In this document: piece by piece, positions 24,143 through 63,293 of the stretch | Layout of the letters: the number at the start of each line of letters is the position of its first letter | Position numbering within the stretch: the first letter of the stretch is position 1 | From: Escherichia coli | GTDB taxonomy: Bacteria > Pseudomonadota > Gammaproteobacteria > Enterobacterales > Enterobacteriaceae | DNA: 64,000 nt | Strand: one strand, 5' to 3' | NCBI RefSeq assembly: GCF_003019035.1 | Contig: NZ_CP027447.1 | Notes under the pieces: generated by a model | Told to the model about the DNA's origin: nothing | Database searches by the model: none | What the model saw: only the letters and a program-made list of their open reading frames with translations | Translations under genes and position numbers: made by a program

Positions 24143-24262
24143 TATGAATATCCAGAGACTCATAGTTTCGAGCCAAGGATGGCTCTGGTGTTCGTAATCT
24201 CGCTTCATCCATTCGAAATTCATTTGTACTGTAGCCCTGTAGACACAACAGAGGACATACAC

Positions 24263-29924: not shown

Positions 29925-30053
29925 ATTAACCTCTTTTTAAATATATAAATAAAAATATTATTTTATTTATATAATAAAATAGTCAGATGTCAATATACAT
30001 GTATTATATTGATTTTAACTTTTTTCAACTGAAAGGCGAAAAAACAAGGGGAA

Positions 30054-30085
30054 ACTCAATGAAGCAGCGTAGCGCTTCGTTGAGT
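30054..30085. promoter_or_regulatory. Candidate oriT inverted repeat upstream of mobC
   Basis: ACTCAATGAAGC...GCTTCGTTGAGT near-perfect inverted repeat (11/12 arms) in the AT-rich leader of the mobC-mobA operon. Confidence 0.4.
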
Positions 30086-30148
30086 TAGCCCTTGCTTTAA
30101 CAATATTGACCAAAATCTCTTTTTAATATAAAATGAATCCTAAGAGGG

Positions 30149-32717: not shown

Positions 32718-33273
32718 AATCAGTCATGCCAAGATGGTTATAGAAACCCTCTGCACTTGGGAGTGCATGTAGGCAAAAACCAGGTCTATACCCCCAGTTT
32801 GAACAGGCATAATTAATTGTATGTTGGATAAGCTCTTTGCCTACTCCACTATATTTAGGGGTAAAGTTAGGACGAGGACGATTCCAGTATGCTGTTGCAA
32901 TATAATCCACGTAGAAAATTTTATTATTATCAAATCGACTTTCTTTTGGATGGTAAAGAACACAAACACCTTGAACTGCGTCGTTTATTTGCAGAAAAAA
33001 CCACTGATAATCATCACCATTACATTGCAAAAGCTTGCGGCACCAGTCCCAATGCCAATCAGAAAGGCTGTTATCTGCCAGAATTTTCCTTGCTAACTCG
33101 TTATCAGTGGCCATACCGGGGTTAGCAGTAATTAGAGCTGACAATAAATCAGCACGATAGGCACCCCATTTGCTCTGCAAGTCAACCACTTTAGCATAGT
33201 CAATCCCTACGTGAATTTGGTAATCAACTGATTTTCCTGAACAATTTTCAACGACCATAAGCTCCCTTTCCAT
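32626..33273 (-). CDS. GNAT-fold acetyltransferase-like protein (215 aa), first gene of the operon
   Basis: GNAT-like motifs ..FYVDYIATAY..RP.....GVGKELIQ.. and ..SAEGFYNHLGMTDFG..; its stop overlaps the start region of the ImmA gene. Confidence 0.5.
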   Translation of the reverse strand: MERELMVVENCSGKSVDYQIHVGIDYAKVVDLQSKWGAYRADLLSALITANPGMATDNELARKILADNSLSDWHWDWCRKLLQCNGDDYQWFFLQINDAVQGVCVLYHPKESRFDNNKIFYVDYIATAYWNRPRPNFTPKYSGVGKELIQHTINYACSNWGYRPGFCLHALPSAEGFYNHLGMTDFGVDHEKENLRFYEASQVVASTLGGISNAA

Positions 33274-33505
33274 TGTGTCGGCTCATTTTGACTAATAATA
33301 CAACTTTATAGTCTTTAAGAATGCTCTGCTGGTCAAATTTCTTATTTGATCTATAGAAGGCTATGTTTTGAAGCTGGTTGTTAATCTGGTTATGATGTGG
33401 TCATATTAGAATTGGTAAATCAAACCAATTTTGTTGGTATGAATGATGGTATCTTCGCTAATGTAATATGCTTTATTCACTAAAAATCATAAGGATAGTT
33501 GCGAT

Positions 33506-33529
33506 GTTCGAGTCCGGCATCCGCACCAC
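33506..33529 (+). repeat. Degenerate direct repeat of the leuX 3' end (candidate att site at the distal island boundary)
   Basis: GTTCGAGTCCGGCATCCGCACCAC versus leuX GTTCGAGTCCGGCCTTCGGCACCA: 13 identical bases followed by 8 of 11 matching with one gap. Confidence 0.5.
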
Positions 33530-34203
33530 ACTGTATGCAAATCGAGTCGCTCAAGAGCGGCTTTTTTTGTGTCTGAAATCACCCATATCCGTGCAGTATA
33601 TAGGCCTGCCAGAAAAGCAATTCAGTATTCTTCATTTTGTAGTCGATGGTCCCAAGTTTGCTCTGGCTGGAAGCTGCATCGTCCACATTACGTGGGCAGG
33701 GTGGTTTCGCTATGCTACTTGAACGTTTTGACCATGTGGCTCAGGTAGCATATCAAAAGACGTCATTTTGTCTCCACGCCCACCTTGGTGAACATTCAAT
33801 AAATAGTTTCGGTCGAGAGCAGTTATGTAGGGCTAGCAGACGAAATGCGCAGACATCTTGTTGAAGACAATTTTACTGACCACCTGAGAACGCTATTCTA
33901 CCGAATAATATTTATTATCTTGGTGAATAATGATGATTACCTGTGTAACTATGGTTTTATGCTGATGGGACCGGCAGTACAATTTCTGTAGTGTACTCGC
34001 AATTTCAGGTCTCTGGCGTTTATTCTGGTGCAAAGGATGTATGTGATGAAAACTTTGCTACCATGCCATTAAATGCGACCAATATCGGATTATCCATCAG
34101 TTGCTTGTTGTAGATTTCATTGGTTATAAAAATGCAAGGTGTAAAAGATGAAATTTATAATTATTAGTTAAGTGGCTAGTTTTATAGTAATTTAGACAAT
34201 AGG

Positions 34204-36252
34204 ATGTATGGAAAAATGGAAAAAGTTTATGATACCACTAGAATTAGTAATCTTGCTAACGACCCGAAACAGTTTTGTTCTTTTTTTTGTGAGTACATAA
34301 AAAGAGATGATATTAGTATAGATATCGCCTTGGATGTGCTGAGAATATCTTCCATCTATTATAATAGATTTTCAGTTCAGACTGAAGTTGAGTATAACAA
34401 TACATTCAAAAAATGTATTAATGAGCTAGTAAACTCATTTCCTGATAACATTGAACTAATCTCTGAGTTCGAGAGTCAATGTAAAATTATGCATGATATA
34501 AATAATTCTTTCTTTGCGGCTACAAAATGTGCTGGTATTTGGCGTAAAAATACAAAAAAATCACATGCATTAATACTTAATCTCATCATGTTTTGTGAGA
34601 TGTTTTTATCATTATTATCATCCTTGGTTGTGGTCAATGATCCTAAAAAAATGAAGAGGATTTTTCCATTGTTTATCGTTTCTGAAAATATTAATATTCA
34701 TGCTGAACCTGATATCGAATATTTTCGAGTTATCGATAGGGCATTTGATGAGGTAGCCAATTACACCGGAAGAATATTTTCTTATTTACGGACTCATGGG
34801 CCATTGAAACTAACTTCTTGTGTGAATAAACAAACCTTGCTTTCAATGGGAGGGTACCTTAATGAGTGGAATGTTTTTGACTCATTAAGCAGAGTAAGAG
34901 ACTTTTTCAGACTAAGTAGTGCAGTATTTACAAAATTGGATAATAACATTTACTCTCTTGAGGTTGATAGTTTTTGTTTATACCGAGATTATGAGATTGC
35001 AAGAAATAGACTAATGATGAGAGCGTCACATCTATATAGCGAAGTTCATGAATTTAGTAACAAACATTTTCATCTAAATAGTTGGGTAAAGGATCATATG
35101 CCATCTTACTTAAATTCTGATGGCGTTTTTAGCTCATTTCATCTAAGCGAGTTGGAAAATATGTCTCCTGATGACCTTCATGAAGAATATGGGAATATAT
35201 CATTATTTAATTGGGTGCACGCTTATCAATGTTTAGTCGAGTTATCTAAAGAAGAAATGAGCAAAAGATTTTCATCGACAAAACCTATACCCCTACAGTT
35301 GGATCGCTGGCTGATCATAAAAAGCCGTGAGAGTTGGTTATCATTCTTTCAACGTAAGGGGATTGCAGTAGATGCAGCAAAAAAACTGATAGATTATTTT
35401 ACCTTCAATTCAAAATCACATGATCTTAATGATTGCCCATTTATTCCCTGTATGGACGGTTTATGCTTAATGCCTGCATTAATAGCAAATAGCTCAGTGA
35501 CTCGCTCTCTAATGTCATTATTTGGTTCCAAAAAAATTTCTCAAGCAAGTAAAGGGCGATTTCATGAGCAACAATTTATAAAACAAGTTCGTGATGCGGG
35601 GATTAAAGCTTCTCCAATTGATGCTCATGCTAATTATCAGTGCGATTGCGTGATTCTCCTGGATGATTGTTTGATTTTTACAGAACTAAAATCAAATGGT
35701 CAACCAATATATTATGGTAAGTACTATCAGCAAGTGTGTAACATCGTTGGAGATAGCTCATTAATACATGATCATAATAATAAATTTATGCGTTCTTATT
35801 TTCAACAAATAAATCGAATTTCTGAACATTATCTTAATCATCTTAATGTGATCATTAAAGAATTCGAACTACCATCAACATGGCAACCCAAAGGTGTGTA
35901 TAAGCTTATTGTTACTACAACTATGCTCGGTGGGAAATATCATGTGGATGATACATATGTAGCGGACAAATATGCATTATCTAGTTTTTTTCAACGAATA
36001 CCTGGAGTGATATATCAAACAAATGAAAATGGAAAAATGGCGAAAAATATCATTGATGGGTTTGAGTGTTGCGAAGGGGAAATCACTATCGATAAGTTTA
36101 TAGATTATCTTTCCTCTTTGCCCAGTATTAATGCTGTACGTAAAAATATAAAAAAATTAACTTATAGTGTTCGATTTAATGAAAAATTAGTCCATCACCC
36201 TTATTATGATTCTTGGGCTTTTGGCCCATATATTCGTAAGGGAAATGATTAG
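34204..36252 (+). CDS. Large hypothetical protein (682 aa), AT-rich, possible C-terminal PD-(D/E)xK-like motif
   Basis: Uninterrupted 2 kb ORF with strong terminator downstream; C-terminal stretch CDCVILLDDCLIFTELKS has a D...E.K pattern; otherwise unrecognised. Confidence 0.6.
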   Translation: MYGKMEKVYDTTRISNLANDPKQFCSFFCEYIKRDDISIDIALDVLRISSIYYNRFSVQTEVEYNNTFKKCINELVNSFPDNIELISEFESQCKIMHDINNSFFAATKCAGIWRKNTKKSHALILNLIMFCEMFLSLLSSLVVVNDPKKMKRIFPLFIVSENINIHAEPDIEYFRVIDRAFDEVANYTGRIFSYLRTHGPLKLTSCVNKQTLLSMGGYLNEWNVFDSLSRVRDFFRLSSAVFTKLDNNIYSLEVDSFCLYRDYEIARNRLMMRASHLYSEVHEFSNKHFHLNSWVKDHMPSYLNSDGVFSSFHLSELENMSPDDLHEEYGNISLFNWVHAYQCLVELSKEEMSKRFSSTKPIPLQLDRWLIIKSRESWLSFFQRKGIAVDAAKKLIDYFTFNSKSHDLNDCPFIPCMDGLCLMPALIANSSVTRSLMSLFGSKKISQASKGRFHEQQFIKQVRDAGIKASPIDAHANYQCDCVILLDDCLIFTELKSNGQPIYYGKYYQQVCNIVGDSSLIHDHNNKFMRSYFQQINRISEHYLNHLNVIIKEFELPSTWQPKGVYKLIVTTTMLGGKYHVDDTYVADKYALSSFFQRIPGVIYQTNENGKMAKNIIDGFECCEGEITIDKFIDYLSSLPSINAVRKNIKKLTYSVRFNEKLVHHPYYDSWAFGPYIRKGND

Positions 36253-36275
36253 AGCAATTTATTATATAGTCCATG

Positions 36276-36330
36276 TTATTCACTGATTATATTATTGATA
36301 ATATAATCAGTGAATAACTCTAATTTTTTT
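36276..36330 (+). terminator. Rho-independent terminator after the 682-aa gene
   Basis: 17-bp perfect inverted repeat TTATTCACTGATTATAT / ATATAATCAGTGAATAA (36276-36317) followed by a T7 run at 36324-36330. Confidence 0.7.
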
Positions 36331-36650
36331 AATGTTGGGGTTTAGCCTGAAGTTGAAATTGGTACTACGGAACGGTATGATCATATCGCATCAAAATATC
36401 AAGGTAGTGATGATTTTCTACGCACCGATCCAGAAATGTGGATTTTATCATCACCATAAGCAATGGCAGCGACAACACCATCAATTTCTATATCAAAGGT
36501 GGTAAAATAAATTAGAAAATTGTTTATTTAATCCATTAGCGATAAGTTTTATTGTTATTTAGCCGAGATATATTCCATTGAAAAAAGTAAATTGGCACTG
36601 ATATTATATCAAATGGGAATAATCCTTTTGTAAATAAGCTGAGGAATGTG

Positions 36651-36830
36651 TTAATTCACATCCAGCGCCTTATAAACCGCATCAACCGGTTCTGAGTAAA
36701 AACTTACCTGAAACTTGGTAAACAACTCTGCCGGAACTGTTGGAATATCCATAGCCGAGGATATCGGCAACAGAACTCGTTTTGCGCCGCTATCGAAGGC
36801 GAGTTGTAAACTAGCGGCAAGATCCTGCAC
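36651..36830 (-). pseudogene. Orphan 3' gene fragment (about 59 codons), probable remnant of a deleted gene
   Basis: Minus-strand frame translating ..VQDLAASLQLAFDSGAKRVLLPISSAMDIPTVPAELFTKFQVSFYSEPVDAVYKALDVN-stop with normal GC content but no upstream continuation; adjacent plus-strand fragments are also present. Confidence 0.3.
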
Positions 36831-36874
36831 TGATTATGTCAGCAATATTGAACATACTGCGATAGTTATCAACC

Positions 36875-37747
36875 TCACCCCCTAAAAACCTCTTTCCGAT
36901 GCCACTCCACAAATCCCTCATAAGGGTAATTTTTACGTACCTGCGGCAACGCAATAGTTTTCCCGTCAAAATCCCAGAATAGTTTCTCAACGATCCCTCC
37001 GCCGTTTACCGCATCTGATACCAGTACCCGCATATTTTCATCCAGGCCAATCGATCCTTTATCAAAGGCTTTATGGTGTATTGCACAAAGCGCCAGACCA
37101 TTAGGAATTTCACAAGGACCGCCGTGCTGTTTCCATTTTATATGCGCCGCTTCCAGCGCGACGGTGGTGTCGTCGTGGCGCATATTAAAGCCACATATCG
37201 CGCACTGGTAGTTATAAGCGCGTAATACATTTTTGCGAAATAACGGGTCGCGCTGTTTACGGATTTGCTGGAGATCAAAACCCAGTTCGTCAGCAATTTC
37301 TTCCTGAATACTCTCGGTGAAGTGCGCTTCGAGTATCTGTTGCGCCAGAGTATTGATGAGTTTTTTATTGCCAGTTACCAGGGCGTAGTGCTGTTCATCG
37401 AAACCGCCTGCAACGTGGTATTCAGTCAGTTCCTTCACTGGTGGTTGTCGGCTGCTCCCTGCTGTTGAGCAAAGCCCGGCATTGTGTAATTGCCAGAATC
37501 CGTCGCCTTGTAATCGCCAGAACGGCATATCAGGTCGGTACTGTGAACGCTGTGGCCCAAAACGTTCCAGTAAATTGTGCAGAGGTTCGTAGATTTCCGA
37601 TCCATAATCGAAAAGGCGCGGATGCCCATTCAGGTATCCCGCTAATACGTATAGCAGTAACAATGGTTTATGCGGCGCGCGCTGTTCACCCTTGTGCCAG
37701 ATTTTTATATTGGCAATTGCCTGCTGTAGCGATTTACTGGAAGCCAT
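36875..37747 (-). CDS. HNH-motif endonuclease with N-terminal DNA-recognition domain (candidate modification-dependent restriction enzyme)
   Basis: C-terminal His-Me finger CAICGF...HIKWKQHGGPCEIPNGLALCAIHHKAFD; probable start MASSKS at 37747 (track ORF extends to 37804). Confidence 0.7.
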   Translation of the reverse strand: MASSKSLQQAIANIKIWHKGEQRAPHKPLLLLYVLAGYLNGHPRLFDYGSEIYEPLHNLLERFGPQRSQYRPDMPFWRLQGDGFWQLHNAGLCSTAGSSRQPPVKELTEYHVAGGFDEQHYALVTGNKKLINTLAQQILEAHFTESIQEEIADELGFDLQQIRKQRDPLFRKNVLRAYNYQCAICGFNMRHDDTTVALEAAHIKWKQHGGPCEIPNGLALCAIHHKAFDKGSIGLDENMRVLVSDAVNGGGIVEKLFWDFDGKTIALPQVRKNYPYEGFVEWHRKEVFRG

Positions 37748-37958
37748 TGATATCCCTGGCAGTGAAATAATTGCGATCATGCTCGCAAATTTTCTGCTGT
37801 TCAAGCCTGCAAGTGAAGATATATTACCTTGATCTCATTTGTTTTTTTGCTGCCTGTGTACCCTAATTGCCATGCGATGTTGCACCGACGCAAACCACCG
37901 TTTACGCCGGAGGAGTTAAAAGCGCTGATGGATGCAAATAAATCAAATTAATGAACGC

Positions 37959-40846: not shown

Positions 40847-42299
40847 AAATTTCACTCATTTGTAGGATACAGAAAGCAATACAAAGCCCGCATAAACAAT
40901 TAGCATTTATGTTGTGTAATATTTTTTTGCCAGGCTTATAGTGTCTTTGGCAACGGGTAACTGTATTTTATATTTTTTGTATAAGGTCTCCTGTGAAAAT
41001 TCTCTTTTCACATTATTTAAATAAACAGAGATCCAGATTAAATACCTGAGTATAAAATCTCTTCTGATGTTTAATTGATTTGAATGTTCGTAAGCTATAT
41101 CACTTACTCAATCCATTTTACCCAGAGTCATAAAATAGAGTGTCTGTTGATCTCATTTTCATATTCCTTTCAGACTGAAGTGCATTTTCATCACCCGATG
41201 TGAAAGAACTGAAGTGATGTTTGCCATAGATTACGAGATGCCCAGTCTCATTGACTATCGTGGTGCACCTTTATACCTGTTATACCAGATCAAAAATCAC
41301 GCAATCCATACAACAAAACCAGATTTGCAATTCGTGTCACAAAATATGTCGATCTTTTTCTAAGAGGCAGATGCCATGTGAAGCCAGACGAACACTTGCA
41401 GTGGTCTTCAAAAACTAAAAATTTTCTTTTAAATATATGTTTTATAAATAATTTATTTAGAATCTAAACAAAGAAAGCTTTGCAAGCTAACTCAGTGAGC
41501 TTGGTGAAAATAAGTGTTTACCCGCCATCAGGCTGAGCATAATTCTCACCATGAAATATGTTTCTTGGTTTGTGGCTTGTAACTGGTCACTCCTGATGTC
41601 GATCTGGAGAGGCTTGTTGATGTTGGTGTTTTCAGGATGATGTTTCACTTAGTTTGTTTGCCGTATCGTCCGGCGAATAGCTGTGATTGAGGAAGGTTTA
41701 AGTCGTAGTGACCAAAGCCATATTTACCAACGGATGTAGATGAAAAAGCGTCGCCTGCGTTCCCCCATATCTCCAGGATAAAAAGGAATGTAACAATCTC
41801 GTGGCGTAAGCTGATGAACCAGGCAGGAATAATCGCTAGGGACCTAAGAATTAGCATGATAATAGCCACTAAGAAATAACTGCGTTCCATGAAATAGCCA
41901 TTTTGTGGCAAATGCAGTTGACTAATAATGTCATATGTGAGACGGCTAGTTGAACGAATATTAAATTTTGCTGAATTTTTTATGTTGATTTTACTTGTTA
42001 CAGAACATATCACATGATATATAGATAAGATTAGTTGCATTAATGATGAGGGTTATTATTAGATTCGTATCCGATTGATAAATATATAAAGGTACATAGC
42101 ATGCAAGAGCATGGCGTTTGTATGGCAACGTTATTATAATTAACTGTTGCTACTCTATTTAAGTTCACTCAGAAGAACTGGTCCACTTACGTTAGTTATT
42201 AAGCAAACGTTCGCTTTTATAAACATAATCAGGATTAAAATGTTGGATTATTGCTAACCCAGCACAGCTAGTGCGCGTCTGTAATTATAAGGGAAAACG

Positions 42300-42902
42300 A
42301 TGAAGAATAAGGCTGATAACAAAAAAAGGAACTTCCTGACCCATAGTGAAATCGAATCACTCCTTAAAGCAGCAAATACCGGGCCTCATGCAGCACGTAA
42401 TTATTGTCTGACTTTGCTTTGTTTTATTCATGGTTTCCGGGCGAGTGAAATTTGTCGATTGAGGATTTCGGATATTGATCTTAAGGCAAAGTGTATATAT
42501 ATCCATCGATTAAAAAAAGGCTTTTCAACAACGCACCCGCTATTGAACAAAGAAGTTCAGGCTTTAAAAAACTGGTTGAGTATCCGTACTTCTTATCCGC
42601 ATGCTGAGAGCGAGTGGGTATTTTTATCACGTAAGGGGAATCCGCTTTCTCGGCAACAGTTTTACCATATTATCTCGACTTCTGGTGGTAATGCCGGGTT
42701 GTCACTGGAGATTCATCCGCACATGTTACGCCATTCGTGTGGTTTTGCTTTGGCGAATATGGGAATAGATACGCGACTTATCCAGGATTATCTTGGGCAT
42801 CGCAATATTCGTCATACTGTCTGGTATACCGCCAGCAATGCAGGGCGTTTTTACGGCATCTGGGATAGAGCCAGAGGGAGACAGCGTCACGCTGTTTTAT
42901 AG
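42300..42902 (+). CDS. fimB: Type 1 fimbriae switch recombinase FimB (tyrosine recombinase)
   Basis: 200-aa MKNKADNKKRNFLTHSEIESLLKAANTGPHAARNY... with the conserved HxxRH..Y catalytic region. Confidence 0.95.
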   Translation: MKNKADNKKRNFLTHSEIESLLKAANTGPHAARNYCLTLLCFIHGFRASEICRLRISDIDLKAKCIYIHRLKKGFSTTHPLLNKEVQALKNWLSIRTSYPHAESEWVFLSRKGNPLSRQQFYHIISTSGGNAGLSLEIHPHMLRHSCGFALANMGIDTRLIQDYLGHRNIRHTVWYTASNAGRFYGIWDRARGRQRHAVL

Positions 42903-43379: not shown

Positions 43380-43976
43380 GTGAGTAAACGTCGTTATCTT
43401 ACCGGTAAAGAAGTTCAGGCCATGATGCAGGCGGTTTGTTACGGGGCAACGGGAGCCAGAGATTATTGTCTTATTCTGTTGGCATATCGGCATGGGATGC
43501 GTATTAGTGAACTGCTTGATCTGCATTATCAGGATCTTGACCTTAATGAAGGTCGAATAAATATTCGCCGACTGAAGAACGGATTTTCTACCGTTCACCC
43601 GTTACGTTATGATGAGCGTGAAGCCGTGGAACGCTGGACCCAGGAACGTGCTAACTGGAAAGGCGCTGACCGGACCGACGCTATATTTATTTCTCGCCGT
43701 GGGAGTCGGCTTTCTCGCCAGCAGGCCTATCGCATTATTCGCGATGCCGGTATTGAAGCTGGAACCGTAACGCAGACTCATCCTCATATGTTAAGGCATG
43801 CTTGCGGTTATGAACTGGCAGAGCGTGGTGCAGATACCCGTTTAATTCAGGATTATCTCGGGCATCGAAATATTCGCCATACTGTGCGTTATACCGCCAG
43901 TAATGCTGCTCGTTTTGCCGGATTATGGGAAAGAAATAATCTCATAAACGAAAAATTAAAAAGAGAAGAGGTTTGA
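43380..43976 (+). CDS. fimE: Type 1 fimbriae switch recombinase FimE
   Basis: 198-aa paralogue of FimB (SKRRYLTGKEVQAMMQAVCYGATGARDY...), GTG start. Confidence 0.95.
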   Translation: MSKRRYLTGKEVQAMMQAVCYGATGARDYCLILLAYRHGMRISELLDLHYQDLDLNEGRINIRRLKNGFSTVHPLRYDEREAVERWTQERANWKGADRTDAIFISRRGSRLSRQQAYRIIRDAGIEAGTVTQTHPHMLRHACGYELAERGADTRLIQDYLGHRNIRHTVRYTASNAARFAGLWERNNLINEKLKREEV

Positions 43977-44023
43977 TTTAACTTATTGATAATAAAGTTA
44001 AAAAACAAATAAATACAAGACAA

Positions 44024-44337
44024 TTGGGGCCAAACTGTCCATATCATAAATAAGTTACGTATTTTTTCTCAAGCATAAAAATATCAAAAAACGACAAAAA
44101 GCATCTAACTGTTTGATATGTAAATTATTTCTCTTGTAAATTAATTTCACATCACCTCCGCTATATGTAAAGCTAACGTTTCTGTGGCTCGATGCATCTT
44201 CCTCATTCTTCTCTCCAAAAACCACCTCATGCAATATAAAAATCTATAAATAAAGATAACAATAGAATATTAAGCCAACAAATAAACTGAAAAAGTTTGT
44301 GCGCGATGCTTTCCTCTATGAGTCAAAATGGCCCCAA
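44024..44337. promoter_or_regulatory. fimS: fimS invertible switch (314 bp between 9-bp inverted repeats), apparently in phase-OFF orientation
   Basis: TTGGGGCCA at 44024-44032 and its inverse TGGCCCCAA at 44329-44337; the internal promoter lies at the fimE-proximal end on the minus strand. Confidence 0.8.
44043..44072 (-). promoter_or_regulatory. fimA sigma70 promoter inside fimS, pointing away from fimA
   Basis: On the minus strand: -35 TTGAGA (44072-44067), 18-bp spacer, -10 TATGAT (44048-44043). Confidence 0.6.
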
Positions 44338-44456
44338 ATGTTTCATCTTTTGGGGGGAAACTGTGCAGTGTTGGCAGTCAAACTCGTTGACAAAACAAAG
44401 CGTACAGAACGACTGCCCATGTCGATTTAGAAATAGTTTTTTTAAAGGAAAGCAGC

Positions 44457-45005
44457 ATGAAAATTAAAACTCTGGCAATCGTTGTTCTGTCGGCTCTGTC
44501 CCTCAGTTCCGCAGCGGCTCTGGCTGATACTACGACGGTAAATGGTGGGACCGTTCACTTTAAAGGGGAAGTTGTTAACGCCGCTTGCGCAGTTGATGCA
44601 GGCTCTGTTGATCAAACCGTTCAGTTAGGACAGGTTCGTACCGCATCGCTGGCACAAGAAGGAGCAACCAGTTCTGCTGTCGGTTTTAACATTCAACTGA
44701 ACGATTGTGACACTACTGTTGCAGACAAAGCTGCTATTGCCTTCCTTGGTACCGCAATTGATGGAACTCATCCTAACGTATTAGCTTTGCAGAGTTCAGC
44801 TGCGGGTAGCGCAACAAAAGTTGGTGTGCAGATCCTGGACAGAACGGGTGCTGTGCTGGCGCTGGACGGTGCGACATTCAGTGAGCAAACAACCCTGAAT
44901 AACGGTACTAACACCATTCCGTTCCAGGCGCGTTATTATGCAACCGGTGTCGCAACCCCGGGTGCTGCTAATGCGGATGCGACCTTCAAGGTTCAGTATC
45001 AATAA
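44457..45005 (+). CDS. fimA: Type 1 fimbrial major subunit
   Basis: 182-aa pilin with signal peptide [23 protein letters not shown] and the conserved C-terminal ..ATFKVQYQ. Confidence 0.95.
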
Positions 45006-45069: not shown

Positions 45070-45609
45070 ATGAAAAGGAAGAGATTATTTCTGTTAGCGT
45101 CGTTGCTGCCGGTGTTTGCTCTGGCCGGAAATAAATGGAATACCACGCTGCCCGGCGGAAATATGCAATTTCAGGGCGTCATTATTGCGGAAGCTTGCCG
45201 GATTGAAGCCGGTGATAAACAAATGACGGTCAATATGGGGCAAATCAGCAGTAACCGGTTTCATGCGGTAGGGGAAGATAGCGCACCGGTGCCTTTTGTT
45301 ATTCATTTACGGGAATGTAGCACGGTGGTGAGTGAACGTGTGGGTGTGGCGTTTCACGGTGTCGCGGATGGTAAAAATCCGGATGTGCTTTCCGTGGGAG
45401 AGGGGCCAGGGATAGCCACCAATATTGGCGTAGCGTTATTTGATGATGAAGGAAACCTCGTACCGATTAATCGTCCTCCAGCAAACTGGAAACGGCTTTA
45501 CTCAGGCTCTACTTCGCTACATTTCATCGCCAAATATCGTGCTACCGGGCGTCGGGTTACTGGCGGCATCGCCAATGCCCAGGCCTGGTTCTCTTTAACC
45601 TATCAGTAA
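45070..45609 (+). CDS. fimI: Fimbrial protein FimI
   Basis: 179-aa pilin-like protein starting [19 protein letters not shown]; the track ORF is extended 44 codons upstream into fimA. Confidence 0.9.
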
Positions 45610-45645
45610 TTGTTCAGCAGATAATGTGATAACAGGAACAGGACA

Positions 45646-46371
45646 GTGAGTAATAAAAACGTCAATGTAAGGAAATCGCAGGAAATAACATTCTGCTTGC
45701 TGGCAGGTATCCTGATGTTCATGGCAATGGTGGTTGCCGGACGCGCTGAAGCGGGAGTGGCCTTAGGTGCGACCCGCGTAATTTATCCGGCAGGGCAAAA
45801 ACAAGTGCAACTTGCCGTGACAAATAATGATGAAAATAGCACCTATTTAATTCAATCATGGGTGGAAAATGCCGATGGTGTTAAGGATGGTCGTTTTATC
45901 GTGACGCCACCTCTGTTTGCGATGAAGGGAAAAAGAGAGAATACCTTGCGTATTCTTGATGCAACAAATAACCAATTGCCACAGGATCGGGAAAGTTTAT
46001 TCTGGATGAACGTTAAAGCGATTCCGTCAATGGATAAATCAAAATTGACTGAGAATACGCTACAGCTCGCAATTATCAGCCGCATTAAACTGTACTATCG
46101 CCCGGCTAAATTAGCGTTGCCACCCGATCAGGCCGCAGAAAAATTAAGATTTCGTCGTAGCGCGAATTCTCTGACGCTGATCAACCCGACACCCTATTAC
46201 CTGACGGTAACAGAGTTGAATGCCGGAACCCGGGTTCTTGAAAATGCATTGGTGCCTCCAATGGGCGAAAGCACGGTTAAATTGCCTTCTGATGCAGGAA
46301 GCAATATTACTTACCGAACAATAAATGATTATGGCGCACTTACCCCCAAAATGACGGGCGTAATGGAATAA
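45646..46371 (+). CDS. fimC: Periplasmic fimbrial chaperone
   Basis: 241-aa PapD-like chaperone, GTG start. Confidence 0.95.
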   Translation: MSNKNVNVRKSQEITFCLLAGILMFMAMVVAGRAEAGVALGATRVIYPAGQKQVQLAVTNNDENSTYLIQSWVENADGVKDGRFIVTPPLFAMKGKRENTLRILDATNNQLPQDRESLFWMNVKAIPSMDKSKLTENTLQLAIISRIKLYYRPAKLALPPDQAAEKLRFRRSANSLTLINPTPYYLTVTELNAGTRVLENALVPPMGESTVKLPSDAGSNITYRTINDYGALTPKMTGVME

Positions 46372-46437
46372 CGCAGGGGGATTTTTTCGCCTGAATAAAA
46401 AGAATTGACTGCCGGGTGATTTTAAACCGGAGGAATA

Positions 46438-49074
46438 ATGTCATATCTGAATTTAAGACTTTACCAGCGAAACACACAATGCTTGCATATTCGTAAGCAT
46501 CGTTTGGCTGGTTTTTTTGTCCGGCTCTTTGTCGCCTGTGCTTTTGCCGCACAGGCACCTTTGTCATCTGCCGAACTCTATTTTAACCCGCGTTTTTTAG
46601 CGGATGATCCCCAGGCTGTGGCCGATTTATCGCGTTTTGAAAATGGGCAAGAATTACCGCCAGGGACGTATCGCGTCGATATCTATTTGAATAATGGTTA
46701 TATGGCAACGCGTGATGTCACATTTAATACGGGCGACAGTGAACAAGGGATTGTTCCCTGCCTGACACGCGCGCAACTTGCCAGTATGGAGCTGAATACG
46801 GCTTCTGTCTCCGGTATGAATCTGCTGGCGGATGATGCCTGCGTGCCATTAACCTCAATGATCCATGACGCTACTGCGCATTTAGATGTTGGTCAGCAGC
46901 GACTCAACCTGACGATCCCTCAGGCATTTATGAGTAATCGCGCGCGTGGATATATTCCTCCTGAGTTGTGGGATCCCGGTATTAATGCCGGATTGCTCAA
47001 TTATAATTTCAGCGGAAATAGTGTACAGAATCGGATTGGGGGTAACAGCCATTATGCATATTTAAACCTACAGAGTGGGTTAAATATTGGTGCGTGGCGT
47101 TTACGCGACAATACCACCTGGAGTTATAACAGTAGCGACAGATCATCAGGTAGCAAAAATAAATGGCAGCATATCAATACCTGGCTTGAGCGAGACATAA
47201 TACCGTTACGTTCCCGGCTGACGCTGGGTGATGGTTATACTCAGGGCGATATTTTCGATGGTATTAACTTTCGCGGCGCACAATTGGCCTCAGATGACAA
47301 TATGTTACCCGATAGCCAAAGAGGATTTGCCCCGGTGATCCACGGTATTGCTCGTGGTACTGCACAGGTCACTATTAAACAAAATGGGTATGACATTTAT
47401 AATAGTACGGTGCCACCGGGGCCTTTTACCATCAACGATATCTATGCCGCAGGTAATAGTGGTGACTTGCAGGTAACGATTAAAGAGGCTGACGGCAGTA
47501 CGCAGATTTTTACCGTACCCTATTCGTCAGTCCCGCTTTTGCAACGTGAAGGGCATACACGTTATTCCATTACGGCAGGAGAATACCGTAGTGGAAATGC
47601 GCAACAGGAAAAACCCCGCTTTTTCCAGAGTACATTACTCCACGGCCTTCCGGCTGGCTGGACAATATATGGTGGAACGCAACTGGCGGATCGTTATCGT
47701 GCGTTTAATTTCGGTATCGGGAAAAATATGGGGGCACTGGGCGCTCTGTCTGTGGATATGACGCAGGCTAATTCCACACTTCCCGATGACAGTCAGCATG
47801 ACGGAAAATCGGTGCGTTTTCTTTATAACAAATCGCTCAATGAGTCAGGCACGAATATTCAGTTAGTGGGTTACCGTTATTCGACCAGTGGGTATTTTAA
47901 TTTCGCTGATACAACATACAGTCGAATGAATGGCTACAACATCGAAACACAGGATGGTGTTATTCAGGTTAAGCCGAAATTCACCGACTATTACAATCTC
48001 GCTTATAACAAACGCGGGAAATTACAACTCACCGTTACTCAGCAACTCGGGCGCACATCAACACTGTATTTGAGTGGTAGCCATCAAACTTATTGGGGAA
48101 CGAGTAATGTCGATGAGCAATTCCAGGCTGGATTAAATACTGCGTTCGAAGATATTAACTGGACGCTCAGCTATAGCCTGACGAAAAACGCCTGGCAAAA
48201 AGGACGGGATCAGATGTTAGCTCTTAACGTCAATATTCCTTTCAGCCACTGGCTGCGTTCTGACAGTAAATCTCAGTGGCGACATGCCAGTGCCAGCTAC
48301 AGCATGTCACACGATCTCAACGGTCGGATGACCAATCTGGCCGGTGTATACGGTACGTTGCTGGCAGACAACAACCTCAGCTATAGCGTGCAAACCGGCT
48401 ATGCCGGGGGAGGCGATGGTAATAGCGGAAGTACAGGCTACGCCACGCTGAATTATCGCGGTGGCTACGGCAATGCCAACATCGGTTACAGCCATAGCGA
48501 TGATATTAAGCAGCTCTATTACGGAGTCAGCGGTGGGGTACTGGCTCATGCCAATGGCGTAACGCTGGGGCAGCCGTTAAACGATACGGTGGTGCTTGTT
48601 AAAGCGCCTGGCGCAAAAGATGCAAAAGTCGAAAACCAGACAGGAGTGCGTACCGACTGGCGGGGTTATGCCGTGCTGCCTTATGCCACTGAATATCGGG
48701 AAAACAGAGTGGCGCTGGATACCAATACCCTGGCTGATAACGTCGATTTAGATAATGCGGTCGCTAACGTTGTTCCCACCCGTGGGGCGATCGTGCGAGC
48801 AGAGTTTAAAGCGCGCGTTGGGATAAAACTGCTCATGACGCTGACCCACAATAATAAGCCGCTGCCGTTTGGGGCGATGGTGACATCAGAGAGTAGCCAG
48901 AGTAGCGGCATTGTTGCGGATAATGGTCAGGTTTACCTCAGCGGAATGCCTTTAGCGGGAAAAGTTCAGGTGAAATGGGGAGAAGAGGAAAATGCTCACT
49001 GTGTCGCCAATTATCAACTGCCACCAGAGAGTCAGCAGCAGTTATTAACCCAGCTATCAGCTGAATGTCGTTAA
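46438..49074 (+). CDS. fimD: Outer-membrane fimbrial usher
   Basis: 878-aa usher with signal peptide; full-length. Confidence 0.95.
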   Translation: MSYLNLRLYQRNTQCLHIRKHRLAGFFVRLFVACAFAAQAPLSSAELYFNPRFLADDPQAVADLSRFENGQELPPGTYRVDIYLNNGYMATRDVTFNTGDSEQGIVPCLTRAQLASMELNTASVSGMNLLADDACVPLTSMIHDATAHLDVGQQRLNLTIPQAFMSNRARGYIPPELWDPGINAGLLNYNFSGNSVQNRIGGNSHYAYLNLQSGLNIGAWRLRDNTTWSYNSSDRSSGSKNKWQHINTWLERDIIPLRSRLTLGDGYTQGDIFDGINFRGAQLASDDNMLPDSQRGFAPVIHGIARGTAQVTIKQNGYDIYNSTVPPGPFTINDIYAAGNSGDLQVTIKEADGSTQIFTVPYSSVPLLQREGHTRYSITAGEYRSGNAQQEKPRFFQSTLLHGLPAGWTIYGGTQLADRYRAFNFGIGKNMGALGALSVDMTQANSTLPDDSQHDGKSVRFLYNKSLNESGTNIQLVGYRYSTSGYFNFADTTYSRMNGYNIETQDGVIQVKPKFTDYYNLAYNKRGKLQLTVTQQLGRTSTLYLSGSHQTYWGTSNVDEQFQAGLNTAFEDINWTLSYSLTKNAWQKGRDQMLALNVNIPFSHWLRSDSKSQWRHASASYSMSHDLNGRMTNLAGVYGTLLADNNLSYSVQTGYAGGGDGNSGSTGYATLNYRGGYGNANIGYSHSDDIKQLYYGVSGGVLAHANGVTLGQPLNDTVVLVKAPGAKDAKVENQTGVRTDWRGYAVLPYATEYRENRVALDTNTLADNVDLDNAVANVVPTRGAIVRAEFKARVGIKLLMTLTHNNKPLPFGAMVTSESSQSSGIVADNGQVYLSGMPLAGKVQVKWGEEENAHCVANYQLPPESQQQLLTQLSAECR

Positions 49075-49083
49075 GGGGGCGTG

Positions 49084-49614
49084 ATGAGAAACAAACCTTT
49101 TTATCTTCTGTGCGCTTTTTTGTGGCTGGCGGTGAGTCACGCTTTGGCTGCGGATAGCACGATTACTATCCGCGGCTATGTCAGAGATAACGGCTGTAGT
49201 GTGGCTGCTGAATCAACCAATTTTACTGTTGATCTGATGGAAAACGCGGCGAAGCAATTTAACAACATTGGCGCGACGACTCCTGTCGTTCCATTTCGTA
49301 TTTTGCTGTCACCCTGTGGTAATGCCGTTTCTGCCGTAAAAGTTGGGTTTACCGGTGTTGCAGATAGCCACAATGCCAACCTGCTTGCACTTGAAAATAC
49401 GGTGTCAGCGGCTTCGGGACTGGGAATACAGCTTCTGAATGAGCAGCAAAATCAAATACCCCTTAATGCTCCATCGTCCGCGATTTCGTGGACGACCCTG
49501 ACGCCAGGTAAACCAAATACGCTGAATTTTTACGCCCGGCTAATGGCGACACAGGTGCCTGTCACTGCAGGGCATATCAATGCCACGGCTACCTTCACTC
49601 TTGAATATCAGTAA
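49084..49614 (+). CDS. fimF: Type 1 fimbrial minor subunit FimF
   Basis: 176-aa pilin-like protein [22 protein letters not shown]...; ATG one codon after the track GTG. Confidence 0.9.
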
Positions 49615-49626
49615 CTGGAGATGCTC

Positions 49627-50130
49627 ATGAAATGGCGCAAACGTGGGTATTTATTGGCGGCAATATTGGCGCTCGCAAGTGCGACGATACAGGCAGCCGA
49701 TGTCACCATCACGGTGAACGGTAAGGTCGTCGCCAAACCGTGCACGGTTTCCACCACCAATGCCACGGTTGATCTCGGCGATCTTTATTCTTTCAGTCTT
49801 ATGTCTGCCGGGGCGGCATCGGCCTGGCATGATGTTGCGCTTGAGTTGACTAATTGTCCGGTGGGAACGTCGAGGGTCACTGCCAGCTTCAGCGGGGCAG
49901 CCGACAGTACCGGATATTATAAAAACCAGGGGACCGCGCAAAACATCCAGTTAGAGCTACAGGATGACAGTGGCAACACATTGAATACTGGCGCAACCAA
50001 AACAGTTCAGGTGGATGATTCCTCACAATCAGCGCACTTCCCGTTACAGGTCAGAGCATTGACCGTAAATGGTGGAGCCACTCAGGGAACCATTCAGGCA
50101 GTGATTAGCATCACCTATACCTACAGCTGA
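49627..50130 (+). CDS. fimG: Type 1 fimbrial minor subunit FimG
   Basis: 167-aa pilin-like protein MKWRKRGYLLAAILALASATIQA... Confidence 0.9.
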   Translation: MKWRKRGYLLAAILALASATIQAADVTITVNGKVVAKPCTVSTTNATVDLGDLYSFSLMSAGAASAWHDVALELTNCPVGTSRVTASFSGAADSTGYYKNQGTAQNIQLELQDDSGNTLNTGATKTVQVDDSSQSAHFPLQVRALTVNGGATQGTIQAVISITYTYS

Positions 50131-50149
50131 ACCCGAAGAGATGATTGTA

Positions 50150-51052
50150 ATGAAACGAGTTATTACCCTGTTTGCTGTACTGCTGATGGGCTGGTCGGTA
50201 AATGCCTGGTCATTCGCCTGTAAAACCGCCAATGGTACCGCAATCCCTATTGGCGGTGGCAGCGCCAATGTTTATGTAAACCTTGCGCCTGCCGTGAATG
50301 TGGGGCAAAACCTGGTCGTAGATCTTTCGACGCAAATCTTTTGCCATAACGATTACCCGGAAACCATTACAGACTATGTCACACTGCAACGAGGTTCGGC
50401 TTATGGCGGCGTGTTATCTAATTTTTCCGGGACCGTAAAATATAGTGGCAGTAGCTATCCATTTCCGACCACCAGTGAAACGCCGCGCGTTGTTTATAAT
50501 TCGAGAACGGATAAGCCGTGGCCGGTGGCGCTTTATTTGACGCCGGTGAGCAGTGCGGGGGGAGTGGCGATTAAAGCTGGCTCATTAATTGCCGTGCTTA
50601 TTTTGCGACAGACCAACAACTATAACAGCGATGATTTCCAGTTTGTGTGGAATATTTACGCCAATAATGATGTGGTGGTGCCCACTGGCGGCTGTGATGT
50701 TTCTGCTCGTGATGTCACCGTTACTCTGCCGGACTACCCTGGTTCAGTGCCGATTCCTCTTACCGTTTATTGTGCGAAAAGCCAAAACCTGGGGTATTAC
50801 CTATCCGGCACAACCGCAGATGCGGGCAACTCGATTTTCACCAATACCGCGTCGTTTTCACCCGCGCAGGGCGTCGGCGTACAGTTGACGCGCAACGGTA
50901 CGATTATTCCAGCGAATAACACGGTATCGTTAGGAGCAGTAGGGACTTCGGCGGTAAGTCTGGGATTAACGGCAAATTACGCACGTACAGGAGGGCAGGT
51001 GACTGCAGGGAATGTGCAATCGATTATTGGCGTGACTTTTGTTTATCAATAA
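50150..51052 (+). CDS. fimH: Type 1 fimbrial mannose-binding adhesin FimH
   Basis: 300-aa MKRVITLFAVLLMGWSVNAWS FACKTANGTAIPIGGGSANVYVNLAP... (lectin domain) plus pilin domain. Confidence 0.95.
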   Translation: MKRVITLFAVLLMGWSVNAWSFACKTANGTAIPIGGGSANVYVNLAPAVNVGQNLVVDLSTQIFCHNDYPETITDYVTLQRGSAYGGVLSNFSGTVKYSGSSYPFPTTSETPRVVYNSRTDKPWPVALYLTPVSSAGGVAIKAGSLIAVLILRQTNNYNSDDFQFVWNIYANNDVVVPTGGCDVSARDVTVTLPDYPGSVPIPLTVYCAKSQNLGYYLSGTTADAGNSIFTNTASFSPAQGVGVQLTRNGTIIPANNTVSLGAVGTSAVSLGLTANYARTGGQVTAGNVQSIIGVTFVYQ

Positions 51053-58873: not shown

Positions 58874-61255
58874 TTAGTGGGAGGTTCTGATTGCTGCTTT
58901 CAAGGCCGGAAGCCGGGACGGACTGGCACTGAGCTTATCAATCCCCATGGTGAGCAGTCGTGCTGTTTGCTGGGTATCTCCAGCCATTTCGCCGCACATA
59001 CTGACCGGAATTTCATTATTACGTCCGGCCTGACACACCATAGCAATAGCGTTAATCACCGCGTCATTACGATAATCGACCAGTTCCGCGACGGTGCTAT
59101 TTCCTCTGTCTGCCGCCATAATATATTGCGTCAGATCGTTGGTGCCGATGGAAAAGAAATCGACTTCACTGGCTAATTTTTCTGCAATCATGACTGCAGC
59201 AGGAACCTCAATCATAATTCCCAGCGCCGGAAGATTTTCTGCAGTAAGTCCCAGCAGTTTTGCCTGCGTTTGTATCAGCGTTTTGACGGCGTTGACCTCC
59301 TCGAGCGTTGAAACCATCGGCAGCATAATTTGCAGCGTTGGGTATTCTTTCCCGGCCCGGAGAAGTGCGCGTAATTGCGGAATAAATATTTGCGGATGCG
59401 CCAGGCACAACCGGATACCGCGAAGTCCCAGGAACGGGTTGTCCTCTGCGGGTAAAGGGTACGAAGGTAATGGCTTGTCACCGCCAATATCCAGAGTGCG
59501 GATGGTGACTGGTTTATCGCCAAAAGCCTGAGCAACAGAACAATACACGCGAAACTGCTCTTCTTCATCGGGTAATGTTGCAGACTCATGGAATAAAAAC
59601 TCTGTGCGCAGTAAACCCACGCCCTCAGCCCCGTGAGATAGCGCAGCCTCAATATCTTGCAGGTCACCAATATTCGCCAGCACGCTGATTTTTCGCCCAC
59701 CTTGCGTGACAGCGGGCAGCATGGCATCAGCTAACTGACGATCCCTTTGTTGCCGCCATGCTTCGGCGCGTTGCAGTAAATCCAGGCGGGTGACCTCATC
59801 CGGCTGTAGCCACAAACGGCCTGTTTCACCATCAAGAATGACTGTGTCGTTATCGCGGACGTTTTGCGGGGTAATAGCTGCCTTCACAATGGCAGGAATA
59901 CCCATTGCTCTGGCAAGGATCGCTGTATGTGAAGTTGTTCCGCCATTATGAAGACAAATGCCAAGAATGTGTGCTTTATTCAGGCTGGTTATCTGTGATG
60001 GCAACAGATCGTTGGCTAACAAAATGCAGGGCGCGGTAGTAATAAAGTGTTGTTCACTTACCCCGCAAAGCTGGTTCAGTACCTGACGTGTAAGGTCACG
60101 GATATCTGCCTCGCGTTCACGTAAATACAGTGTTTCCGCCTGACAATATTGCTCTGCTAATGCCTGCATGACTTCTAACCATGCGAATTCCGCCTGTTTG
60201 CCCTTTGCCAGACGTTGCTGTAATTGCCGGTTAATCTTTGGATCTTCAAGCATCATTTTATGGGCGGCAAAAATATCGCCTTCAGGGCCTGCCGCTTTAT
60301 CGGCAAGTTCACAAACAACAATGTCGATAGCAGACTCGATTCGCGACAGCTCTTCTTGCGGAGAATCGACGGTGCGCTGCGTAATTTCTGGTCGTTCGCA
60401 GGTAAACCATTTAACAGGACCAATAGCGATACCATTTTGTACTGACAAGCCTGATATTGCGCCATCAACAGGGGCGCTGACCACCGGCGTTTCCGTTAGC
60501 GGAATCTCTGAAGAAGCGAGCAGGTGAGCTTCACCAAAATGATTTTTCGCCAACGTTTCAATTGCCTTGAGAGCGTCACTGGCATCGGTGCCTTCGGCCT
60601 GGAAGATGATTTCATCGCCACAGCGGACGCCCAGCATTGCCAGTTCGTTGAGACTGCGGGTGCTGGCGCGTTTATCGCCTTTGATGACGATAATGTTTGC
60701 CGAAAATTGTGCGGATACTTTCAGGATGCTGGCTGCCGGACGAGCATGAATGCCGTGGGGATTACGTATCGTCCAGCAAAAAGTTTGCCATTCATCGCAA
60801 TGATTGATTGGTGATATTGCTGGAATAACCTCGCCTGCAGTTGAGGATGGCGTGAGTTGCTGCTGTTTAGCACACAGCGCAAGATCCACTTCAGCGATAA
60901 TCTCCGTCACCGAAAGCCCCGCTGCGGCAGACGTTACCGCTGACATGGCACCTTCCACTACAGGGGCGGCGAGCAGATAAATTGCACTTCTTTGCTCTTC
61001 AGAAAGCAGCTCCAGCGCCATCTCGGTACTAAGCAGCGCACTGCCCATATCCATGAGTACCAGAACGCCATCCGGTGACCAGACCGATTCAATCGCAGAC
61101 ATAATGGCAATAGCATCAGTGCCAATCGGATTTTGCGGATCATCAATACCTGCAGCAATGGCCAGAGGAACGTCCCCTCCAGACATCTGTAGTGCTAATT
61201 CCTCAACCCCCTGGGCGAGACGTAGACTATGAGAAACAATAACAATGGCAACCAT
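58874..61255 (-). CDS. DhaM-like PTS multiphosphoryl transfer protein: EIIA(Man-type)-HPr-complete Enzyme I fusion
   Basis: N-terminal MVAIVIVSHS (DhaM EIIA-type), HPr-like HGIHARPAA, Enzyme I phospho-His region GGTTSHTAILARAMGIPAIV and PEP-binding domain motifs IGTNDLTQY and CGEMAGD. Confidence 0.85.
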   Translation of the reverse strand: MVAIVIVSHSLRLAQGVEELALQMSGGDVPLAIAAGIDDPQNPIGTDAIAIMSAIESVWSPDGVLVLMDMGSALLSTEMALELLSEEQRSAIYLLAAPVVEGAMSAVTSAAAGLSVTEIIAEVDLALCAKQQQLTPSSTAGEVIPAISPINHCDEWQTFCWTIRNPHGIHARPAASILKVSAQFSANIIVIKGDKRASTRSLNELAMLGVRCGDEIIFQAEGTDASDALKAIETLAKNHFGEAHLLASSEIPLTETPVVSAPVDGAISGLSVQNGIAIGPVKWFTCERPEITQRTVDSPQEELSRIESAIDIVVCELADKAAGPEGDIFAAHKMMLEDPKINRQLQQRLAKGKQAEFAWLEVMQALAEQYCQAETLYLREREADIRDLTRQVLNQLCGVSEQHFITTAPCILLANDLLPSQITSLNKAHILGICLHNGGTTSHTAILARAMGIPAIVKAAITPQNVRDNDTVILDGETGRLWLQPDEVTRLDLLQRAEAWRQQRDRQLADAMLPAVTQGGRKISVLANIGDLQDIEAALSHGAEGVGLLRTEFLFHESATLPDEEEQFRVYCSVAQAFGDKPVTIRTLDIGGDKPLPSYPLPAEDNPFLGLRGIRLCLAHPQIFIPQLRALLRAGKEYPTLQIMLPMVSTLEEVNAVKTLIQTQAKLLGLTAENLPALGIMIEVPAAVMIAEKLASEVDFFSIGTNDLTQYIMAADRGNSTVAELVDYRNDAVINAIAMVCQAGRNNEIPVSMCGEMAGDTQQTARLLTMGIDKLSASPSRLPALKAAIRTSH

Positions 61256-61258
61256 AAT

Positions 61259-61891
61259 TTATCCCGCGAATCCTTCCTGCATAGCCTTAATCATCAGCCA
61301 GGAGGAGGTCGCGCCTGGATCCTGATGGCCCACACTGCGAGCGCCGAGATAACTGGCACGTCCTTTTTTCGCCTGCATATTGATGGTGTTATCGACGGCT
61401 GTTGCCGCATCTTGCACCATCGTATTCAGCAGAAGGGAAGGCGACATTCCGGCTTGCAGGTTCTTTTTGGCTTCGTGGAGAACTGGAACCCAGACATCAC
61501 ACAGAGTTTTATCCCTTTGTTCTGCTTTTCCTCGTGCGATAACGCCTGCAATCCCTTCTTCCAGACACGCCAGCCACTCTTCCAGAGTTAATTCTGTTCT
61601 GGCTCCCACTGCCGCAGAAGCGCGAATAAATAATGTGCCGTAAAGAGGACCACTGGCACCGCCAACGCTGGAAAGTAGTTTCATGCCAGTATTTTTAAGA
61701 ATATTGCCAATATGCTGACGTTCAATGTCGGGCAACGTCGCTTTCACTGCACTGAAACCACGATTCATATTGAGGCCGTGGTCGGCATCACCAATATCTC
61801 TGTCAAGTGCGGTTAGAAAATCTTGTTGTTCAGTGAGATGTGCAGCACAACTCTCCAGCCAGGCAATAACATGTTTGTTTTGAATTTTCAT
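61259..61891 (-). CDS. Dihydroxyacetone kinase subunit L-like (ADP-binding)
   Basis: 210-aa DhaL-fold protein with DxxxGDxDxG-like motif (DRDIGDADHGLNM). Confidence 0.85.
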   Translation of the reverse strand: MKIQNKHVIAWLESCAAHLTEQQDFLTALDRDIGDADHGLNMNRGFSAVKATLPDIERQHIGNILKNTGMKLLSSVGGASGPLYGTLFIRASAAVGARTELTLEEWLACLEEGIAGVIARGKAEQRDKTLCDVWVPVLHEAKKNLQAGMSPSLLLNTMVQDAATAVDNTINMQAKKGRASYLGARSVGHQDPGATSSWLMIKAMQEGFAG

Positions 61892-61903
61892 ATAATGTCC
61901 TTA

Positions 61904-62968
61904 TTAACATCCCCAACGAAGCGCTGGCGTATTGACCGGGGCATCCCAAAGTTGCAAAAACTCTGGGGTACATTTCAGCAGGCTGATGGAAAATCCGGCC
62001 ATATCTAATGATGTACAATAATTACCGACCAACTGGCGGCTAATTTTAATTCCCTGGCGCTGTGCGGCGCACATAAATACCCTGGCTACACCATATAACT
62101 CTGATTCAGGCGTGCTGCCAAGTCCGTTAATTAACACAATATATTCGGCATTTTGATCGAATGACTCATTCATTGATGATGCGTCAATCCATCCCCCCGC
62201 ATGGCGATCCCAATGGCGTAATGTGCGTCGCCAGGGGGTATTATCCAGTAATTGCGCTATCACGCTGTCGATTAAAGTGTTCAGATCTTGCAAAGTGCGG
62301 CGTTCAATGCCGGGTTCACCGTGGATCCCGACACCAAATTCGATTTCATTATCAGCCAGTTCAAATGAGGGTTTTCCCGCGGCGGGAACCGTACAGGCTG
62401 ACAGTGCGATGCCAAAAGAACGGGTGGCATTGTTAACATTTTTGCCAAGTTGCTCGCACTGCCCCAGGTTATATCCCTGAAGTGCAGCCGCACCGACAAT
62501 CTTTTCAACAAAAACTGTACCCGCAACACCGCGACGTCCGGCTGTATACAGGCTATCTTTTACCGCTACATCATCATCAATAATGACGGTCCCAACGGCG
62601 ATGCCTTCTTCGTGTAACATCTCGACTGCCGTTTCGAAATTCAGAATATCGCCTGTGTAATTTTTGATGAAAAACAGAACGCCAGAACCATTATCAACCG
62701 CTTTGGCACATTCGATCATTTGATCTGGCGTGGGCGATGTGAAGATTTCACCAGGACATGCACCGGTTAACATTCCCATACCGACAAAACCTGCATGCAG
62801 TGGTTCATGGCCTGAGCCGCCGCCTGAAATCAGCGCCACTGCATTATCGGTTTGTTTGCACCACACATATCGGGGCGCGTAATTTGCCTGCAGGTGTGGC
62901 CAGGTGGCGATGAGTCCTTCCATTTGTTCTGTGACAACAGAATCAATCTGGTTAATTAATTTCTTCAT
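61904..62968 (-). CDS. Dihydroxyacetone kinase subunit K-like (substrate-binding)
   Basis: MKKLINQIDSVV... with the conserved DhaK motifs GGGSGHEP and substrate-binding His region (GVGIHGEPG). Confidence 0.85.
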   Translation of the reverse strand: MKKLINQIDSVVTEQMEGLIATWPHLQANYAPRYVWCKQTDNAVALISGGGSGHEPLHAGFVGMGMLTGACPGEIFTSPTPDQMIECAKAVDNGSGVLFFIKNYTGDILNFETAVEMLHEEGIAVGTVIIDDDVAVKDSLYTAGRRGVAGTVFVEKIVGAAALQGYNLGQCEQLGKNVNNATRSFGIALSACTVPAAGKPSFELADNEIEFGVGIHGEPGIERRTLQDLNTLIDSVIAQLLDNTPWRRTLRHWDRHAGGWIDASSMNESFDQNAEYIVLINGLGSTPESELYGVARVFMCAAQRQGIKISRQLVGNYCTSLDMAGFSISLLKCTPEFLQLWDAPVNTPALRWGC

Positions 62969-63293
62969 AGTCATTCCTGTTCTGATAAATTACGTAAATC
63001 GCGCTAAATATGTTTGCGAGATTAATTCTCCAGCCGCAATAAAACAAATCGCACGATAATAAGATTCATAATGAAACAGTTAATTCATGGTGTTGTTTCA
63101 AAATGAAAAGGGACCAGTATGGATATTGATATATTGTGATTAAGGCATGAAAAGTGTTTTTTATTATCATCTGCAGATGATGTTTTTTACAGCGCGATCA
63201 TAAAACATAATTTTTCGCGAATGAAATGTTTGCCGCCACTGGATGCAACGAGTAGGTTAACAGTGAAGCAAAACAAGTTACGCGAGGAATGAT

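Follow-up and report, generated by a model that had tools for sequence, protein, structure and literature searches.

A 314-bp fimS element recorded in the phase-OFF orientation in an Escherichia coli genome

Introduction

The closest described system is the fim switch of Escherichia coli, in which the promoter PfimA is located within the invertible element fimS (PMC9993118, PMC9096935). The phase is defined by the direction of this promoter, OFF being the arrangement in which PfimA is directed away from fimA (PMC9993118). Two recombinases act on the element: FimB inverts it in both directions and FimE mainly from ON to OFF, and each binds four half-sites flanking the repeats, with strand exchange inside the repeats (PMC9993118 and preprint, PMC9096935, PMC11316696). 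Cleavage and ligation take place inside the inverted repeats (PMC9993118). IHF and Lrp are required as architectural cofactors, Fis competes at LRP-2, and in phase OFF FimE is lowered by a Rho-dependent terminator within fimS, to which fimE is then connected (PMC9993118 and preprint, PMC9096935, PMC11316696). [quoted passage not shown]

Here we describe the corresponding locus in a 64-kb window, by which we mean the whole stretch of DNA that was analysed. The type 1 fimbrial locus is in its usual chromosomal setting, with the gene order nanS-nanM-nanC, a 1,444-bp intergenic region, fimB, fimE, fimS, fimAICDFGH, gntP, uxuAB, uxuR and yjiC. The segment between fimE and fimA is, with a probability of about 0.96, fimS, the invertible promoter element of type 1 fimbriae phase variation, recorded in phase OFF. 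As such it is already known, a textbook case in the state in which it is most commonly recorded.

Results

Location and identity of the element

Each strand of the 64-kb window contains exactly one copy of the 9-mer TTGGGGCCA, and the two copies enclose 314 bp (Table 1), which agrees with the original prediction that 9-bp inverted repeats bound a segment of exactly this length. At least two matches to the repeat were also seen in 12 of 100 shuffles, so the number of matches is in itself weak evidence. What settles the identity of fimS is its context, namely the intact fimE and fimA ORFs around it and the identity of 309 of its 314 positions to the fimS of MG1655. The flanking ORFs encode 198 aa and 182 aa, with a 200-aa ORF further upstream, and the stretch around fimS matches DNA annotated with fimE and fimA in 4,687 complete E. 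coli genomes. The junctions of the element show no irregularity, either in the sequence itself or in the alignment to MG1655. An Rfam search over the whole window gave no RNA family in or adjoining fimS.

Table 1. Features of the fim locus and of the dha operon in the window.
Feature	Position	Strand	Basis
fimB, tyrosine recombinase, inverts fimS both ways	42300..42902	+	200-aa ORF, 100% identical to MG1655 FimB
fimE, tyrosine recombinase, mainly ON-to-OFF	43380..43976	+	198-aa ORF, GTG start, 197/198 against MG1655
IHF consensus match at IHF-1 position, just outside left repeat	43979..43991	-	predicted, WATCAANNNNTTR match
fimS, 314-bp invertible element, phase-OFF orientation	44024..44337		repeats, alignment, in-silico digests
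IRL, left 9-bp inverted repeat TTGGGGCCA, recombination site	44024..44032	+	exact repeat match
Predicted PfimA (-35 TTGAGA 44072-44067, 18-nt spacer, -10 TATGAT 44048-44043)	44043..44072	-	consensus scan; points toward fimE
SnaBI site TACGTA, published orientation assays	44056..44061		in-silico digest
IHF consensus match at IHF-2 position, within fimS	44106..44118	-	predicted, WATCAANNNNTTR match
fimS end with Lrp (LRP-1/LRP-2) and Fis sites, adjoining IRR as in phase OFF	44222..44328		probe primers; borders approximate
BstUI site CGCG, unique, OL4/OL20 orientation assay	44302..44305		in-silico digest
IRR, right 9-bp inverted repeat, TGGCCCCAA on + strand	44329..44337	-	exact repeat match
fimA, major type 1 fimbrial subunit, cut off from its promoter in this orientation	44457..45005	+	182-aa ORF
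fimI, fimC, fimD, fimF, fimG, fimH	45070..51052	+	all ORFs intact; mapped on TCM3e1 annotation
Fused DhaM/HPr/enzyme I-like 793-aa protein	58874..61255	-	
DhaL	61259..61891	-	
DhaK	61904..62974	-	

Recombinases and other parts of the fim locus

Both recombinase genes are present as full ORFs. The counterpart of fimB in a 99.8%-identical relative is annotated as "type 1 fimbria switch DNA invertase FimB". FimE differs at a single residue, F77Y (codon 43608-43610), from the FimE of MG1655 and from that of M172-1, being identical to each at 197 of 198 positions. The FimB paralog has an N in the column aligned to this residue, so the two recombinases do not share a conserved residue here. The residues R47, H141, R144 and Y176 (FimB numbering), which we take to be the catalytic R-H-R-Y residues of the recombinase family, are invariant in the four sequences that were aligned.

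Directly past fimA, 45016-45050 matches the K-12 sRNA FimR2 with one mismatch in 35 nt, and FimR2 is annotated in the same place in NC_000913.3. FimR2 reportedly arises by processing of the transcript of the fim operon, and its production should therefore also depend on the orientation of the switch. On the other side of the recombinase genes, the nanC-fimB intergenic region (40856-42299) is AT-rich, with GC down to 0.29, and presumably corresponds to the long upstream regulatory region known for fimB. A 131-aa ORF on its minus strand (41645-42040) is probably spurious.

Orientation of the element

The original prediction held that the switch is in phase OFF, and it had proposed alignment to a reference and a restriction assay as ways to check this. 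In the alignment the window is collinear with MG1655 over fimE, fimS and fimA, so the orientation is that of the MG1655 reference OFF state and not of reference ON. The restriction assays were run in silico, and both gave the OFF sizes. For the PCR with OL20 and OL4 followed by BstUI, the published products are 539+187 bp for OFF and 433+293 bp for ON (PMC9993118). Both primers match the window exactly; the window as recorded gives 539+188 bp, and the same sequence with 44024-44337 flipped gives 293+434 bp. For the PCR with Inv-1 and Inv-2 followed by SnaBI, 440+161 bp (OFF) and 403+198 bp (ON) have been published (PMC4374849), and here we obtain 161+442 bp for the window and 405+198 bp once the element is flipped. 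Finally, the primers of a gel-shift probe, BSFORBIO (44222-44241) and BSREVBIO (44336-44356), are likewise collinear, as they should be for the right end of an OFF switch. These four tests concur in placing fimS in phase OFF, as had been predicted. The PfimA motif lies on the minus strand and fimA on the plus strand, and the motif is directed away from fimA, as in the definition of OFF.

The recorded orientation should be read as one consensus call for a phase-varying population, presumably reflecting most cells of the sequenced culture, and not as a fixed genotype.

Promoter candidates

In a scan of 43900-44500 the top sigma-70 match was TTGAGA-18-TATGAT, which scores 10/12 and lies 11 nt from IRL. 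This is the predicted PfimA, an assignment made from the consensus match together with the literature placement of PfimA in fimS. Transcription from it would start about 7 nt downstream of TATGAT, at about 44036-44038 on the minus strand.

The motif had been described as the only good sigma-70-like promoter in the element, on the minus strand at the fimE-proximal end. That it is the best match stands, but it is not alone, as two weaker 9/12 matches also lie within fimS, one at 44113-44142 on the plus strand (TTGATA-18-TAAATT) and the other at 44262-44233 on the minus strand. The companion claim, that no comparable rightward promoter is visible, needs a similar adjustment: none is equally good, but the match at 44113-44142 does point rightward. 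The three matches together compare with a shuffle expectation of 1.9 +/- 1.5 and are within chance.

A perfect -35 hexamer, TTGACA, is found at 44388-44393 in the spacer between IRR and fimA, where it is created by a T-to-G difference from K-12. No -10-like hexamer is present 16-18 nt past it when the sequence is read, and the scan gave no match there, so TTGACA is probably not a switch-independent promoter. We have rejected an alternative rightward promoter at either place, given the missing -10 partner of TTGACA and a 44113-44142 match that falls within the shuffle expectation.

Cofactor sites

The IHF consensus WATCAANNNNTTR has only seven matches in the 64-kb window, and two of these are at the expected fim positions, corresponding to IHF-1 and IHF-2 (Table 1). 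A 16-nt inverted repeat with 88% identity spans IRL (43979-43994 / 44042-44057), and we considered whether it could give the fimE 3' UTR an RNA hairpin that depends on the orientation. Folding of the 101-nt stretch gave z = -0.08 for the OFF arrangement and z = -0.93 for ON, and the minimum-energy structure does not contain this pairing. The hairpin was rejected, since the z-scores are insignificant and the inverted repeat is what chance yields in AT-rich DNA.

Orientation across complete genomes

To put the recorded orientation in context, we searched 5,426 complete E. coli genomes with queries of 140 nt across the fimA-side junction, one in the arrangement of the window and one flipped, counting matches over at least 80% of the query. 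This returned 4,464 OFF-type and 247 ON-type IRR junctions, and these right-junction counts cover 4,711 of the approximately 4,718 genomes with a match. The switch is thus recorded OFF in about 95% of the complete E. coli assemblies that carry the locus and ON in about 5%, which is a useful baseline for reading the orientation of any single assembly. The proportion fits the published dominance of FimE in the ON-to-OFF direction. The ON-type assemblies include one of DH5alpha; NZ_CP026085.1 and NZ_CP058714.1 are examples of the class.

Discussion

How the switch would work here

For promoter use, recombinase directionality, cofactor binding and the terminator we rely on published K-12 work, and we infer the following course of events from it. 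PfimA would sit just inside one end of fimS, the end that now abuts the fimE-side repeat. From there it would fire leftward, giving a transcript that converges on the 3' end of fimE and leaving fimAICDFGH without a promoter. FimB, a tyrosine recombinase, would invert the element by strand exchange inside the two 9-bp repeats, aided by the bending of the DNA by IHF and Lrp. After inversion PfimA would adjoin the repeat on the fimA side and lie about 130 nt ahead of the fimA ATG, so that fimA would acquire a 5' UTR of about that length and fimbriae would be turned on. FimE would then return the switch, acting mainly from ON to OFF, and it is because of this bias that OFF would be the dominant state in cultures and in assemblies.

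Other readings of the OFF record

A number of other readings could account for the recorded state. One is that the five SNPs inside fimS, of which 44241 and 44301 fall in the Lrp/Fis end, together with FimE F77Y might shift the rate or bias of switching, so that OFF would reflect an altered set-point and not the usual default dominated by FimE. We regard this as very unlikely, and nothing in the data points to it.

It is highly improbable, too, that a genetic defect, either in fimS or in the recombinases, keeps the switch locked OFF. Locked switches have been reported for EPEC, Shigella and some other lineages: E2348/69 has been described as locked OFF (PMC9096935), and OFF was the state of all 129 Shigella genomes in one survey, fimB being inactivated in S. 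flexneri (PMC4374849). The F77Y change in FimE, absent from K-12 and M172-1, could be taken to point the same way; a defect in FimE would, however, favour ON and not OFF. We found no lesion in fimS, fimB or the operon, as there is no deletion in fimS, fimB is wild type and all fim ORFs are intact. As far as sequence can tell, the switch looks competent, not locked. It has its full length of 314 bp with both repeats exact, its FimB is identical to the functional FimB of K-12 and its FimE is one residue off, both IHF consensus sites are present, and the same fimS allele is found inverted in M172-1. Locking may also be exerted in trans, for example in the Fis-dependent manner of EPEC, and that is beyond the reach of sequence evidence.

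The orientation could also be an assembly artefact, or the arbitrary consensus of a culture that was roughly evenly mixed, to which we give hardly any credence. It is true that fimS inverts within cultures, that assemblers give only one orientation, and that 247 complete genomes have been recorded ON. OFF is nevertheless the majority state expected with an intact FimE and the one seen in 95% of assemblies, and the junctions here are regular. This reading moreover qualifies the main explanation and does not replace it.

That the true state of the element is phase ON, with fimA served by a rightward promoter elsewhere, such as the 9/12 match at 44113-44142 or the TTGACA that is perfect here and not in K-12, has a practically negligible probability, since both in-silico restriction assays and the reference alignment give OFF and neither candidate held up as a promoter.

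What the record is good for

A fimS element in phase OFF, then, is what the assembly records, and its importance is as annotation only. The strain has a complete and apparently switch-competent type 1 fimbrial system, with fimA left without its promoter in the state that was recorded. In promoter and operon prediction, as well as in structural-variant calling, 44024-44337 should be handled as DNA that can invert, and be taken neither for fixed sequence nor for a mis-assembly.

Other features of the window

A few features outside the fim locus can be mentioned here. After the tRNA gene leuX, tRNA-Leu(CAA), at 21640-21724 come an integrase gene (21914-23161) and an island of variable content, and the region 21640-37804 looks like a variable defence/mobile island. 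Its ORFs include a relaxase-like gene (28250-29569), a member of the sce7726 family (30149-30724) and a phosphorothioated-DNA-binding restriction endonuclease (36875-37804), and no NCBIfam match was found for the island ORFs at 23231-24142, 25165-26013, 27293-27964, 30707-31822, 32626-33273 and 34204-36252. In TCM3e1, a close relative, the equivalent place upstream of nanS holds different cargo, with a type I R-M system, a TIR-domain protein and AAA ATPases.

Past yjiC there is a dhaK/dhaL/dhaM-like operon on the minus strand (58874-62974). TCM3e1 has iraD-hypT-iadA in this position, and the dha operon is probably a strain-specific insertion or replacement. On the plus strand, 10473-10667 matches the Rfam family Ysr276 (Yersinia sRNA 276, antisense type) with 182 bits and E = 9.5e-55; the match lies inside or antisense to a 503-aa ORF (9714-11225).

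Comparison with known systems

The nearest named system is the fimS of MG1655 (NC_000913.3 4542682-4542995), which has the same locus, length, 9-bp repeats and orientation. It also shares the fimB-fimE-fimS-fimA order, the PfimA hexamers, the IHF consensus sites and the BstUI and SnaBI sites. The differences are small. Five SNPs lie inside fimS, at 44085, 44133, 44193, 44241 and 44301; the spacer between fimE and IRL is one A shorter here, several SNPs are found in the spacer between IRR and fimA, and FimE carries F77Y.

M172-1 (NZ_CP058714.1; 957-1270 of the compared locus) has an element that is 100% identical over the 314 bp but inverted, and thus recorded in phase ON. Its 64-bp left flank is identical, and the 140-nt synthetic query for the ON right junction, which includes 70 nt of right flank, matches it at 100%. 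In this arrangement TTGAGA-18-TATGAT adjoins IRR and points at fimA. As M172-1 carries the identical allele in the other orientation, this exact fimS allele inverts in nature.

The locked-OFF switches of EPEC E2348/69 and Shigella spp. are likewise recorded OFF, but those are held by mutations in fimB or other fim genes or by Fis-dependent control, whereas FimB, both repeats and the operon are all intact in the window. In the fimS of Klebsiella, the mrp/MrpI switch of Proteus, the invertons of Bacteroides and the hin switch of Salmonella, a promoter segment with inverted repeats is similarly flipped by a site-specific recombinase. The loci and sequences of these switches are different, and in the case of Salmonella hin the enzyme is a serine recombinase and so belongs to a different family.
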